This document shows positions 35,434-41,090 of a stretch of DNA of 64,000 nt, in pieces. Numbering within the stretch: the first letter of the stretch is position 1; every line of letters starts with the position of its first letter. The stretch is taken from positions 185 through 64,184 of the forward strand of contig CAIYOD010000139.1 in assembly GCA_903927755.1 (NCBI GenBank), written 5' to 3'. A model generated the notes under the pieces. That model ran no database searches and had not been told where the DNA came from. It worked only from the letters and a program-made list of their open reading frames with translations. The DNA comes from an uncultured Thermoleophilia bacterium. GTDB lineage: Bacteria; Actinomycetota; Thermoleophilia; UBA2241. Made by a program: the position numbers and the translations under genes.

Positions 35434-35942
35434 GGGCGCTCCTTCTCGCGCGTCGCCAGCACGATGGCGCCGATCATGGCGGCGACGAGCACGAGCGAGA
35501 CGAGCTCGAACGGGAACACGTAGCGGTCGAAGATGAGCCGGGAGAGCTGGCGCAGGCCCGGTGTCAGCGACTTGTCGCCGATCTGGCCGATGTCGGACGA
35601 CAGCGCAACGAAGGCGAGCACCGCGGCGCCGACGAGCGCCACGACGGCGGCGATCGCCGTCTGGCGGTTGAAGAAGAGGTCGTACCCGCCGTGCTGCACC
35701 TCGGTGAGCATGATCGCGAAGATGATGACGATCGAGATGGCGCCGACGTACACGAGGATCTGGATGATGGCCACGAGCGGCGCGTTGAGCAGCGCGTAGG
35801 CGAACGCCACGCCGAGGAAGCAGAACACCATCGAGACGGCGGAGTACATGATCTTCCTGAACAGCACGACGCCGAGGCCGCAGACGAGCACCCACGCGGC
35901 CACGATGACGAAGAACCAGGGATGGAAGTCGCCGCCGGGCAT
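35430..35942 (-). CDS. nuoJ: NADH:quinone oxidoreductase subunit J
   Basis: 170-aa protein with about 5 TM helices (…IQILVYVGAISIVIIFAIML…). It overlaps nuoK by 4 nt and the upstream fusion gene by 1 nt. Confidence 0.9.
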   Translation of the reverse strand: MPGGDFHPWFFVIVAAWVLVCGLGVVLFRKIMYSAVSMVFCFLGVAFAYALLNAPLVAIIQILVYVGAISIVIIFAIMLTEVQHGGYDLFFNRQTAIAAVVALVGAAVLAFVALSSDIGQIGDKSLTPGLRQLSRLIFDRYVFPFELVSLVLVAAMIGAIVLATREKERP

Positions 35943-38416
35943 CAGGCCTCTCCCCCCGGGTCGTCCAGCGAAACCGGGTCGTCCTTGATCGGCTGCCAGA
36001 CCCAGCCCAGGCCACGCTCGGCGTCGAGGGCGTGCGGGACGAGATCGGCGACGGTCTCACGCAGCGAAGCGACCGGGCGCGACTCGCGGATGTAGAGCGA
36101 CTCGCGCGACATCGTCGTGCGGCTGTAACCGGCGAGCTCGAAGAAGTCGGTCTGCTCGAGAGCGTCGTAGGGACAGACCTCGACGCACTCGCCGCAGAAG
36201 ATGCAGCGGCTCTCGTCGAGGTCGTAGCTGCCGAGGATGCGCGGGTTGGTCTCGATGGAGCCCGTGGGGCACGTCTCGGCGCACTTGCCGCAGCTCACGC
36301 AGCCGACCAGCTGGAGCGGCAGGTTGTCGGCGGTGCTGACGATGGTGTCGAAGCCGCGGTCCATGTTGTCGTAGCAGCTCGACCCGACCTCCATGCGGCA
36401 CACGCGCACGCAGCGGCCGCAATTGATGCAGCGATTGGGCTCGCGCATGATGAAGTCGTGGCGGAAGTCGGCCGGGTAGTCGTGGGCGTCGCCACCGTGG
36501 AAACGATTCTTGAACACCTCGTACTCGATGCCGTACCGCTGCAGGTCGCACTTGCCGTTGGCCGGGCAGTAGCACTGCAGGCAGAGCTCGGCGCCGCGGA
36601 CGGCCTCGTCCTCACTGAAGCCGAGCTCGATCTGCGTGAAGTTGGTCTTGCGGTCGCCCGGCTCGAGCTTGGGCATCTCGGCCGGCGGGCTGGGATGCGA
36701 CACGTCGGTGGTCATGTCGATGAAGACCGGCGGGATCTCGGCCATGCGCGCGAGGCGCGGGTCCAGATCGGTCCGGTCGCTCAGCGCGTTGAAGAACGGC
36801 GTGGCCTTGAGCTCGGCGAGCGACTGTGAGAGGTCCGCCATGTCCTCGCCGCGCAGGAAGGCGTCCATGCTCCAAGCGGCCTTCTTGCCCTGGGCGACGG
36901 CTTGGATCACGGTCTGCGCGCCGAGCACGGCGTCGCCGCCGGCGAACACGCGCGGGTCCTCCGTCTGGAAGGTCCAGTCGTCCACCTGGATGGTGCGCCA
37001 CTTGGTGCGCTTGACGCCCTGCTCCTCGCTGGTGCCGTCGAGATCGGGGAACTGGCCGATGGCGGCGATGACCTGGTCGCACTCGATGACGAACTCGGAA
37101 CCCTCGACGGGTACGGGGCGGCGGCGGCCGGAGGCATCGGGCTCGCCGAGCTCCATGCGCTGCATCTCGATGCCGGTGACCTTGTTGGCGGCGTCGGCGA
37201 TCACGCGCACGGGGGCGCACAGGAGCTCGAGCTTGACGCCCTCCTCCTCAGCCTCGTCGACCTCGGTGTGGTGCGCCGGCATCTCCTTGCGGGAGCGGCG
37301 GTAGAGGCAGGTGACCTCGGCCGCGCCTTTGCGCACGCTGGTACGGCAGGCGTCCATGGCGGTGAAGCCGCCGCCGATCACCACGACCTTCTTCCCCACG
37401 TGCACGTCGCCGTTGAGCTCCAGCTCACCGAGGAAGTCGACCGCGGTGACGACGCCCTCGGCGTCCTCGCCGTCGCAGCCCATGCCGTTGCTGTTGAACG
37501 CGCCGAGAGCGAGGAACACGGCGTCGTACTCGGCGGTGAGCTCCTCGAGCTGGTAGTCGACGCCAAGCCGGCTGTTCGGCTGCAACTCGACGCCCATGCG
37601 CCACAGCACGTTGATCTCCTTGTCCAGGAGGTCGCGCGGCAGGCGGTAGCTCGGGATGCCGTAGCGAAGCATGCCGCCCGGCTTGGGCAGGGCCTCGAAG
37701 ATCTTGACGGAGTGGCCCTCGAGCCGGGCGTAGAAGGCGGCGGCGAGGCCGGCGGGCCCGCCGCCCACGATGGCGATCTTCTTGCCGGTGTCGGCCTTGG
37801 GCTCGACCGGCAGCAGCAGCTCGCCCGTCTGCTCCTCGTCGATCGTCTGATCGGCCATGAAGCGGTGGAGCTGGCAGATGGTGATGGGGTGCTCGACGAG
37901 CTGGCGGCGGCAGGGACCCTCGCACGGTCGCGGGCACACGCGCCCGAGCACGGCCGGGAACGGCAGGTCCTCGCGCAGCTTGCGCACGCCGTTCTTGTAG
38001 TCCTTGTGCGCGATGTAGTCGAGGAACTGCGGGATCTTGATGTGCGTCGGGCAGGCGTCGCGGCAGGGCGGCGTGCAGAAGGAGTTGTGGTCGCTGAGCA
38101 GCAGCTCGAGGTAGAGGTGCCGCATGGCGCGGACCTTCTCGGTGCTCGTCTTGACGACCATGCCGTCGCTCACGGCCGCCGAGCAGCTCGGGACCATCTT
38201 GCGGGCGCCCTCGACCTCGACGATGCACATGCGGCACGCCGCCGTGGCGGGCAGGCGCGGCTCGTAGCAGAGCGTCGGGATGTGGACGCCGATGCGCTGG
38301 GCGGCCTCGAGGATGGTGTCGCCGCGGTCGCAGGCGACCTCCTGCCCGTCGATGGTGACCAGCACCTGATCGGGTCGCGGCTTGGCCTGCGTGATGTTCT
38401 CGACGGTGGTCGCCAT
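35942..38416 (-). CDS. Fusion protein. It has a NuoG-type N-terminal [2Fe-2S] domain, then a GltD-type FeS/FAD/NAD(P)H oxidoreductase module, then NuoG-type [4Fe-4S] motifs, then the C-terminal half of NuoI.
   Basis: 824-aa single ORF with four recognisable segments. The [2Fe-2S] region is [21 protein letters not shown]. The GltD Fer4_20-like region is [19 protein letters not shown]...[14 protein letters not shown]. The dinucleotide fold is [17 protein letters not shown], with a second [15 protein letters not shown]. NuoG-like [25 protein letters not shown] and [17 protein letters not shown] follow. The terminal [29 protein letters not shown] matches NuoI motif 2. Confidence 0.85.
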   Translation of the reverse strand: [824 protein letters not shown]

Positions 38417-40332: not shown

Positions 40333-41090
40333 CCCTTCGCACCGCCGACCTCTTCCATGAGGTCGCGGATGATCTTGCGTGTCTGGTCAGGGGTGAGGCC
40401 GCCGTAGGTCTGGTCGCCGATGCGCATGACGGGAGCCTGCGAGCAGGCGCCCATGCAGGCGACGGACGACAGCGTGAACTTCATGTCCGTGGTCGTCTTG
40501 CCGTCGGCGATCCCGAGTTCTTCCTCCAGAGCCTCGGTGATCTGGACCGCTCCCGCGACGTGGCAGGCGGTGCCGTGGCAGACGTCGATGATGTACTCGC
40601 CGACCGGTGAGAGCCGGAACTGGTTGTAGAAGCTGGAGACGCCGTAGATCTGGCTCAGCGAGACGCCGGTCTGCAGGCTGAGCTCCTGGAGAGCGACGCG
40701 CGGCAGATAGCCATAGACCTCCTGCGCGTTCTGCAGCATGGCGATGAGGCCGGTGCCGTGCTCGTAGTAGTCGTCGAGCACCGGCTGCAGATCCTTGAGC
40801 TCGATGCCCTGCTGCGCCGCGAGGCGCGCCTCGGCGATGCGCGCCGCGTTGGGCACCGGCAGACGGTACTTGCTCGTGTGATTGACGCGGATGACCTGCA
40901 CCGGGCAGTTGCTCTCGCACAGGGTGCAGGAGCGGCAGCGCGGCTCGCCGCTCGCGGGGTCGATGACCACGCGGAAGAGGCCGCGGCTGCGCGCCGGCAG
41001 CGCCTCGCGCTGCTCCGGGTACTGGACGGTGAGCTTCTTCTTGGGCAGATGGCTCATCGTCTGCCGCATGGCCTTGAACATGCCGAGCAT
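40329..41090 (-). CDS. Fusion protein: N-terminal half of NuoI (first [4Fe-4S] motif) joined to a complete NuoE-type [2Fe-2S] domain
   Basis: 253-aa single ORF. LTVQYPEQREALPARSRGLFRVVIDPASGEPRCRSCTLCESNCPVQVIRV matches the NuoI N-terminal half. IAMLQNAQEVYGYLP...DVCHGTACHVAG...SVACMGACSQAPV matches NuoE. The ATG overlaps the nuoH stop by 1 nt, and the stop overlaps the next start (ATGA). Confidence 0.85.
   Translation of the reverse strand: MLGMFKAMRQTMSHLPKKKLTVQYPEQREALPARSRGLFRVVIDPASGEPRCRSCTLCESNCPVQVIRVNHTSKYRLPVPNAARIAEARLAAQQGIELKDLQPVLDDYYEHGTGLIAMLQNAQEVYGYLPRVALQELSLQTGVSLSQIYGVSSFYNQFRLSPVGEYIIDVCHGTACHVAGAVQITEALEEELGIADGKTTTDMKFTLSSVACMGACSQAPVMRIGDQTYGGLTPDQTRKIIRDLMEEVGGAKG

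Follow-up and report, generated by a model that had tools for sequence, protein, structure and literature searches.

Complex I has 14 conserved core subunits, NuoI among them, and the locus described here raises the question of what has become of this one. The window, a stretch of 64,000 nucleotides (nt) from an uncultured Thermoleophilia bacterium (UBA2241; assembly GCA_903927755.1, contig CAIYOD010000139.1, positions 185 to 64,184 of the forward strand), carries a minus-strand nuo operon that runs from about 44.8 to 30.1 kb in surroundings of high guanine plus cytosine (GC) content (65-73%). The gene order is nuoA-B-C-D-H-[NuoI N-half+NuoE]-NuoF-like-[NuoG-like/GltD+NuoI C-half]-nuoJ-K-L-M-N, that is, an 11-gene core nuoA-B-C-D-H-(I)-J-K-L-M-N in which the nuoI slot is filled by three genes. 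An earlier note on this DNA had proposed that nuoI is split and that its halves are fused in frame to different proteins of a module lying between nuoH and nuoJ, and the profile, PDB and joined-half matches reported below agree with that proposal. In our reading, which is based on sequence comparison, the operon would encode a membrane-bound, proton-pumping complex I whose Nfn-Bfu/StnABC-type input module is encoded inside the split nuoI; we give this reading a probability of roughly 0.8.

Two halves of NuoI on two polypeptides

The three open reading frames (ORFs) at the nuoI position, all on the minus strand, and the parts of them that concern NuoI are listed below, with lengths in amino acids (aa).

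40329..41090, minus strand: ORF1, 253 aa, NuoI N-half and NuoE domain
38419..40332, minus strand: ORF2, 637 aa, NuoF-like flavoprotein of the BfuB type
35942..38416, minus strand: ORF3, 824 aa, NuoG-like/GltD protein with the NuoI C-half
40866..41090, minus strand: NuoI N-half, ORF1 residues 1-75, comprising the N-terminal helix, the segment YPE...RSRG and the first of the two CxxCxxCxxxCP motifs (CRSCTLCESNCP)
40794..40865, minus strand: ORF1 linker, residues 76-99, without a family match and variable among aligned homologues
35942..36247, minus strand: NuoI C-half, ORF3 residues 724-824, comprising a strand (YDLDESR), the second motif, a tail (DFFELAGY) and an extension at the C-terminus

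The NuoI profile used was NCBIfam TIGR01971, which has 121 positions and a curated cut-off of 113.05 bits. Its positions 3-66 align to ORF1 residues 9-74 (E 6e-13) and its positions 69-114 to ORF3 residues 724-769 (E 3e-15), so that the two matches are complementary and colinear and the break falls in the loop between the two motifs. A further NuoI profile, NF004537, covers ORF3 residues 726-796, and both profiles bear out the claim that ORF3 ends in the second half of NuoI. Scored separately against TIGR01971, the halves reached 48.4 and 55.9 bits; joined in silico (ORF1 1-76 plus ORF3 ~722-824), they gave a single NuoI match over positions 3-114 with 103.1 bits (E 7e-30), and the best 11 families for the joined sequence were all NuoI/NdhI.

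The alignments are not confined to the cysteines, since NuoI-specific segments are aligned in both halves, namely LTVQYPE...RSRG in ORF1 and the DFFELAGY... tail in ORF3. When ORF1 residues 1-104 were compared with PDB sequences, essentially only NuoI/NDUFS8/TYKY chains were returned (residues 4-70, best E 8e-10), and these alignments begin upstream of the Cys motif (FK..r.t.shl....tv.YPe....p.RsRG). The earlier note had left it to profile searches to tell NuoI from generic ferredoxin motifs; the similarity proved to be NuoI-specific and colinear, with NuoI/NdhI as the top families. Like canonical NuoI/Nqo9/NDUFS8 (TYKY), the window's version lies between nuoH and nuoJ and keeps the N-terminal segment, both CxxCxxCxxxCP motifs and a DFE-type tail in colinear order. 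Unlike the canonical subunit, a single polypeptide of ~160-180 aa that holds both motifs, its fold is divided between two polypeptides, with the first motif in ORF1 and the NuoI-type second motif in ORF3; the N-half leads into NuoE, the C-half ends a NuoG/GltD protein, and three genes (~4.8 kb) stand between the halves. The earlier description of ORF1 as an N-half followed by a complete NuoE domain was right except in having the one run straight into the other, as a linker of about 25 residues (76-99) separates them.

The arrangement of cysteine motifs bears on how clusters could be bound. Three Cys motifs lie near the C-terminus of ORF3, the first two of which align residue by residue with A3/A4 of 8oh5_C and 9bov_A. 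In StnC/NfnA these two pair with one another, so that by homology no partner in cis is left for the third (Cys738/741/744/748), just as there is none for the single motif of ORF1 (Cys52/55/58/62). In 2x[4Fe-4S] ferredoxin folds, each cluster is held by three cysteines from one motif and a fourth from the other. Because the ligands come from both motifs, the two orphan motifs can bind clusters only jointly, and we infer that N6a and N6b, the clusters by which NuoI passes electrons on from NuoG to N2 in NuoB, form between the ORF1 and ORF3 polypeptides. AlphaFold2 models were computed from shallow alignments: for ORF1 (13 homologues), residues 2-94 had a predicted local distance difference test (pLDDT) score below 50 and the NuoE part a moderate one, as would fit a half-domain in need of a partner, and for ORF3 619-824 (27 homologues) the mean pLDDT was 33, even for the portion that folds in StnC. 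The low model confidence reflects the shallow alignments, and neither monomer model counts as evidence.

Operon layout and gene junctions

The starts of the nuo genes were refined by script, and a related locus (L001) was used for the domain calls of orthologs. The genes flanking the module are as follows.

44479..44847, minus strand: nuoA, 122 aa, start MTNAYLTDW; the called gene in L001 is equally long and matches PF00507
43913..44482, minus strand: nuoB, with the N2 cluster cysteines present in the translation; L001 ortholog PF01058
43416..43910, minus strand: nuoC, 164 aa; L001 ortholog PF00329, likewise 164 aa
42209..43423, minus strand: nuoD, 404 aa, overlapping nuoC by 8 nt; L001 ortholog PF00346, likewise 404 aa
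41090..42208, minus strand: nuoH, 372 aa; PF00146 E 2e-106, NF004741 NuoH 316 bits (cut-off 305)
35430..35942, minus strand: nuoJ, 170 aa; PF00499 E 1e-31
35125..35433, minus strand: nuoK, 102 aa; L001 ortholog PF00420, likewise 102 aa
33198..35114, minus strand: nuoL; L001 ortholog PF00662 and PF00361
31604..33196, minus strand: nuoM, from the ORF list and comparison with L001
30062..31603, minus strand: nuoN, from the ORF list and comparison with L001

The minus-strand ORF list confirmed the ORF coordinates of the earlier note. Its junctions also held at three of four places: nuoH and ORF1 overlap by 1 nt (TGATG), ORF1 and ORF2 by 4 nt (GTGA; an alternative ATG at 40317 would give a 12-nt gap), and ORF3 and nuoJ by 1 nt (TGATG). 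The direct abutment it gave for ORF2 and ORF3 is instead a 2-nt spacer. Judging from these junctions, the module genes are translationally coupled with one another and with nuoH and nuoJ. A scan of the ORFs in the 64-kb window for CxxCxxCxxxC found no intact nuoI, the other ORF with the motif being IorA-like (59903-61816), and no further nuoI, nuoE, nuoF or nuoG was found in the operon or in the window.

The inserted module

The domains that make up the rest of ORF1 and ORF3 were assigned as follows.

40329..40793, minus strand: NuoE/BfuC-type [2Fe-2S] thioredoxin-like domain, ORF1 100-253; PF01257 E 8e-47 (residues 104-244)
38078..38368, minus strand: NuoG/HydA-type [2Fe-2S] domain and start of the His-ligated cluster motif, ORF3 17-113; PF13510 E 1e-19, aligned to 9bov_A and 8oh5_C
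36572..38077, minus strand: GltD/NfnB-like insert with two [4Fe-4S], FAD and an NADPH site, ORF3 114-615; PF14691, PF07992, 5jca_L NfnI E 5e-95
36248..36571, minus strand: rest of the HydA/NuoG-type Fe-S domain with a 2x[4Fe-4S] pair (Bfu A3/A4), ORF3 616-723; PF22117 Fer4_Nqo3 655-720

All three proteins find their closest solved homologues among the Bfu subunits of bifurcating Nfn/Stn/Hyd enzymes, with about twice the score of canonical NuoF. For the NuoE part of ORF1 these are NfnC (9n5u_C, 9bov_C) and StnA (8oh5_A). ORF2 combines an N-terminal 2Fe-2S thioredoxin-like domain, an FMN/NADH domain, an N3-type cluster and a C-terminal 2x[4Fe-4S] domain (PF01257 at 27-106, PF01512, PF10589 and Fer4 families at 567-620; SLBB was not separately listed), and its FMN/NADH motifs are in place (GLRGRGGAGFPTG, NADEGDPGAF). 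It aligns over its full length to BfuB of bifurcating enzymes (7t2r_B with 812 bits, 9bov_B, 8oh5_B; E 5e-243), as against 407 bits, over the core only, to Thermus Nqo1. Residues 17-744 of ORF3, with Pfam spans Fer2_4 17-92, Fer4_20 114-194, Pyr_redox_2 213-510 and Fer4_Nqo3 655-720, align to Caldicellulosiruptor NfnA (9bov_A, E 1e-192), to Sporomusa ovata StnC (8oh5_C, E 8e-169) and also to Thermococcus NfnA (9n5u_A). The FAD motif (GGGPAGL) and the NADPH-type motifs of its GltD part are nearly invariant across the family alignment.

By these homologies, the module is of the bifurcating Nfn-Bfu/StnABC kind and not a canonical or rearranged NuoEFG. The earlier note had correctly placed an electron-input module inside nuoI; the NuoEFG-like identity it assumed gives way to Nfn-Bfu/StnABC for all three proteins. 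Both the BfuB domain set with an accompanying BfuC and a BfuA with the GltD/NfnB-like FAD and NADP(H) domain inside the HydA/NuoG-type Fe-S domain are present. In StnC, the A3/A4 domain is followed by an FdhF-like, catalytically inactive domain (PMC10482914); here, the StnC/NfnA alignments end at ORF3 residue ~744, and the NuoI C-half stands in place of the FdhF-like domain.

Comparison with described systems

The Nfn-Bfu/StnABC/NfnABC enzymes (8OH5, 9BOV, 9N5U) are the closest solved homologues of all module subunits and share the GltD-in-NuoG architecture as well as the BfuB and BfuC domain sets. They differ in being soluble three-subunit enzymes, whose large subunit ends in the inactive FdhF-like domain (PMC10482914) and whose NuoE-like subunit is without a NuoI N-half, whereas the genes described here are embedded in a nuo operon. 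A complex I with BfuABC input, Nuo-Bfu, has been predicted for Geobacter, other Proteobacteria, Deferribacteres, Planctomycetes and Nitrospirae (Schut et al. 2022, PMC9304861). As in Nuo-Bfu, Bfu-type subunits replace NuoEFG in the complex I cluster of the window, BfuB begins with a 2Fe-2S domain and ends with a 2x[4Fe-4S] domain, and menaquinone is the predicted acceptor. Nuo-Bfu has fourteen separate subunits A-N, with an intact NuoI that is not found here; the paper (PMC9304861) mentions no split, no fusion and no NADPH-binding GltD domain, and there is no report of it from Actinomycetota.

Two other arrangements are partly alike. In the Mbx-like operons of Thermotoga and proteobacteria, a GltD-related flavoprotein replaces NuoI (Degli Esposti 2015, PMC4758237), so that a GltD-type NAD(P)H flavoprotein occupies the NuoI position of a complex I-like cluster there too, but NuoI is substituted rather than split and a NuoE/NuoF-type module is missing. 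Por-Bfu (Schut et al. 2022) has a Bfu module within a por cluster, and a Thermoleophilia paralogue described below (L077-L079) is of this general kind; the fusion of its BfuA (with GltD) to PorB via one NuoI-like half, with the other half carried by BfuC, has not been described for Por-Bfu. Neither a split NuoI nor a complex I operon with an Nfn-type module turned up in our literature search, and the novelty claimed for the architecture in the earlier note stands. A Bfu-type complex I as such had already been predicted; the split core subunit is unprecedented.

Conservation in Thermoleophilia and a second lineage

At 90% identity, homologues of the ORF1 fusion form more than 120 clusters, with 65-96% identity to it, full coverage and nearly always 250-253 aa, and ORF3 has likewise more than 120 clusters of ~824 aa each. 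When one genome per GTDB species was scanned, 78 loci came up on contigs of up to 2.1 Mb. Almost all belong to metagenome-assembled genomes (MAGs) labelled as uncultured Thermoleophilia, Actinomycetes or Actinomycetota, with soils, peat, sediments and anaerobic reactors as their sources. Every locus with sufficient flank has the order nuoD-nuoH-ORF1-ORF2-ORF3-nuoJ-nuoL. The synteny search suggested earlier thus returned the same nuoH-module-nuoJ order in ~70 species, and these species-level Thermoleophilia MAGs come from independent projects and many sequencing technologies, with contigs of 0.4-2.1 Mb among them. The eight cysteines of the two half-motifs are conserved at 98% or more (74 loci for the N-half, 52 for the C-half), the flanking NuoI-type residues are conserved as well, and, read from these alignments, both halves are under purifying selection.

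A few copies stand apart. Two short contigs, L010 (3.8 kb) and L073 (2.0 kb), hold module copies 94% and 70% identical that are filed under Deltaproteobacteria and Vicinamibacteria MAGs; binning contamination is a more likely source of these labels than lateral transfer. A variant nuo-embedded module (L069, 6001-10273, MAG MFD02138.bin.2.13) has intact NuoI halves, a NuoF-like protein without the FMN-binding glycine motif and without both accessory domains, and a BfuA-like protein in which the NADPH part of GltD is swapped for a 2x[4Fe-4S] insert resembling the C-terminal domain of BfuB. This variant may reflect decay, rearrangement or nanopore assembly error.

An exhaustive search for full-length NuoI-half/NuoE fusions with clustering at 50% gave only two clusters, that of Thermoleophilia and a protein designated P0244 (43% identity, 251 aa), and both examined loci are nuo-embedded. 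The P0244 contig (L082, 359-11571, ~49-52% GC) has the order nuoH, [NuoI N-half+NuoE], [NuoF-GltD], [G'-I_C], nuoJ-K-L-M-N. GltD is carried here on the C-terminus of NuoF, in a fusion of 1048 aa, and the HoxU-like N-terminal Fe-S domain of NuoG forms a 265 aa protein with the NuoI C-half, which corresponds to ORF3 minus its GltD insert (residues 117-615). Identity to the window's subunits is 38-49% throughout. The NuoI break point is identical (C-half positions 69-114), and the joined halves score 116.2 bits, over the 113.05 cut-off. As the break point is shared, the split is older than the divergence of the two lineages, with the GltD domain placed differently in each. The second lineage is rare, with one further protein among 5.8 billion, and a scan of JGI metagenomes for its members found none.

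A paralogue in a por operon

A second copy of the module with 41-55% identity (L077-L079) occurs in three genomes that also hold the nuo-embedded one (L069, L064, L061). In L079 (3700-11844), the order is porG, an intact porD, porA, [NuoI-like N-half+NuoE], BfuB and [GltD-BfuA+NuoI-like C-half+PorB], with the following gene positions.

4709-5917: porA
5920-6750: NuoI-like N-half and NuoE
6752-8656: BfuB
8653-11844: BfuA, C-half and PorB (TPP domain)

NuoI profiles were best for these halves as well, and the joined halves gave 76.5 bits over model positions 16-116. The first ~15 positions of TIGR01971, the N-terminal segment of NuoI, are missing from the L079 copy and retained in the nuo-embedded copies. 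These comparisons suggest that the module took the split NuoI domain along and that this domain now wires it, as an adaptor, to a 2-oxoacid:ferredoxin oxidoreductase. The only other match read through with a NuoI-like N-half was P0245, also of the por-linked type; P0267 and P0313 have unrelated N-terminal regions with generic CxxCxxCxxxC motifs.

Alternative explanations

An artefact of assembly or binning was the obvious concern, as all data are MAGs or metagenome contigs and several nanopore MAGs contain frameshifted genes; with gene order and lengths (250-253 aa, ~824 aa) recurring in more than 120 protein clusters and ~70 species-level genomes, it is hardly credible. Misassembly was rejected on this recurrence in independent projects and on the second lineage, which settles the worry voiced in the earlier note about the junctions. 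A different view is that the last two motifs of ORF3 form a self-sufficient 2x[4Fe-4S] ferredoxin, that the N-terminus of ORF1 binds a separate cluster or none, and that NuoI was lost or replaced. The two motifs do lie only ~20 residues apart, and the pair matches the clostridial-type or polyferredoxin families FwdF and MvhB with E 1e-25 to 1e-27. This is nevertheless quite improbable, because in StnC/NfnA the counterpart of the penultimate motif belongs to the A3/A4 pair and has the preceding motif as its partner, the halves cover complementary NuoI model coordinates (3-66 and 69-114) with NuoI-specific segments outside the Cys motifs, and a lineage of only ~40% identity has the same break point with joined halves above the NuoI cut-off. 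It was the homology of that penultimate motif with A3/A4 of StnC that led us to reject a self-contained ferredoxin at the C-terminus of ORF3.

The module might also be a soluble Nfn-Bfu transhydrogenase whose genes simply share a transcript with the membrane complex, the halves forming an internal ferredoxin-like domain while the membrane arm uses another partner. Its closest solved relatives are indeed soluble, and the paralogous module with the same split ferredoxin lies in a por rather than a nuo operon. We consider this improbable, given that the nuo-embedded copies keep the N-terminal segment of NuoI (model positions 1-15) that the por-linked copy lacks, that the operon is without another NuoI and yet its NuoB retains the N2 cysteines, that the genes are joined by 1-nt and 4-nt overlaps with nuoH and nuoJ at either end, and that the nuoH-nuoJ position is invariant in ~70 species. 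The occurrence of the split domain in two genomic contexts, nuo and por, would fit yet another history, in which a split ferredoxin (N-terminus of BfuC plus C-terminus of BfuA) was ancestral to the Bfu subfamily and later displaced the resident NuoI, with no insertion into nuoI. However, NuoI profiles beat other ferredoxin families for both copies, colinearity of the nuo copies with NuoI starts at model position 1-3, full-length fusions form only the two clusters at 50%, both nuo-embedded where examined, with one por-linked type besides, and the solved Bfu enzymes are without a split domain, all of which makes this history very improbable.

Some points weigh against a complex I built around a split NuoI. 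The window's joined halves, at 103.1 bits, remain ~10 below the NuoI cut-off of 113.05. The absence of a second, intact nuoI covers only the 64-kb window and ±10 kb at related loci. The monomer models of ORF1 and ORF3, being of low confidence, lend no structural support, and the ~25-residue linker of ORF1 must span the distance from the NuoI position to the NuoE position, which is plausible. The use of NADPH and ferredoxin, the direction of electron flow and any bifurcation or confurcation are predictions from homology.

Proposed working and origin

In the complex as we picture it, the two orphan CxxCxxCxxxCP halves would pair at the ORF1/ORF3 interface into the 2x[4Fe-4S] NuoI fold with N6a and N6b, and the rebuilt fold would dock on NuoB/D/H through the retained N-terminal segment, which would hold the assembly to NuoH and the Q-module. 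Electrons pass through NfnABC along FAD-A7-A6-A3-A2-A1-[B1-FMN-C1]-B3-B4-ferredoxin (PMC11829005), and in Bfu enzymes the module for the third substrate enters via A4 (PMC9304861). Since the NuoI C-half follows the A3/A4 domain of ORF3 after ~15 residues, the wire would lead from A3/A4 over N6a and N6b to N2 (NuoB) and then to menaquinone. NADPH would be oxidized by way of FAD-A7-A6-A3 and NADH by way of FMN-B1-A1-A2-A3, and reduced ferredoxin may be a third donor through the C-terminal clusters of BfuB, as predicted for Nuo-Bfu. The enzyme would then be an NAD(P)H (possibly also ferredoxin):menaquinone oxidoreductase, its substrates, electron direction and any bifurcation, confurcation or transhydrogenation being modeled on its homologues; Bfu enzymes bifurcate or confurcate electrons at a flavin, with NAD(H) and ferredoxin. 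The pools of NADH, NADPH and possibly ferredoxin would be joined to the quinone pool and the proton-motive force.

As to origin, the flanking gene order is that of 11-subunit complexes (terminology of PMC4758237), and the input module is nearer to soluble Bfu enzymes than to canonical NuoE/F. On these two grounds, the operon most likely arose when a soluble Bfu module was captured by an 11-subunit complex I via insertion into nuoI; we infer that this capture was separate from the canonical insertion of nuoEFG between nuoD and nuoH. A wider account is offered tentatively and may well not hold as a whole. It sees here a second, independent origin of a pyridine-nucleotide-oxidizing complex I, in which an 11-subunit (nuoABCDHIJKLMN) ancestor took up a soluble bifurcating Nfn-Bfu transhydrogenase inside nuoI to give a four-substrate hub of NADH, NADPH, ferredoxin and menaquinone coupled to proton pumping, and in which the split NuoI then became a portable docking adaptor, reused in the same genomes to connect a copy of the module to pyruvate:ferredoxin oxidoreductase.

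Genomic neighbourhood and annotation

Further along the window lie a tungsten-type aldehyde:ferredoxin oxidoreductase (AOR, 54404-57217), an AMP-binding, PaaK-like ligase (57554-59902) that has a long N-terminal extension, and the IorA-like indolepyruvate:ferredoxin oxidoreductase (59903-61816). The operon of L001 is flanked by a POR_N/TPP_enzyme_C and POR pair (IOR-like), an ACT-domain gene and a gene for an AMP-binding ligase of the PaaK type. Judged from these gene contents, the neighbourhood points to ferredoxin-linked aromatic amino acid catabolism, and such ferredoxin-dependent neighbours are consistent with an organism that has a ferredoxin pool. A large gene cluster for cell-envelope polysaccharide occupies regions 1-30000 and 50960-53098; among its products are a chain-length protein (Wzz/GNVR), group 1 glycosyltransferases, a protein of the beta-helix type and an O-antigen-ligase/TPR protein. 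For two long ORFs (7263-8963, 10203-12053), Pfam gave no match.

In public annotation, the homologues of ORF1 are named 'NuoE', 'NADH-quinone oxidoreductase subunit E' or 'NAD(P)H-dependent oxidoreductase subunit E', and those of ORF3 'FAD-dependent oxidoreductase' or 'formate dehydrogenase major subunit'. The names NuoI and NuoG are never used for these genes (proteins P0001-P0240). Automated or KEGG-style reconstructions would score the complex I of this lineage as incomplete, without NuoG and NuoI.

Significance

A natural, widespread two-polypeptide NuoI would mean that the fold tolerates fission at the loop between its motifs, and it would show a way in which an electron wire can take in new modules. 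For the evolution of complex I, the gene order and the affinity of the module to soluble bifurcating enzymes point to an NAD(P)H module acquired apart from the canonical entry of nuoEFG between nuoD and nuoH, and they make this evolution directly testable. If the GltD-type NADPH site is wired to the quinone chain, this would be a respiratory complex I able to use NADPH, and electrons could possibly be exchanged among NADH, NADPH and ferredoxin in bacteria that are abundant in soils, peat, sediments and digesters.

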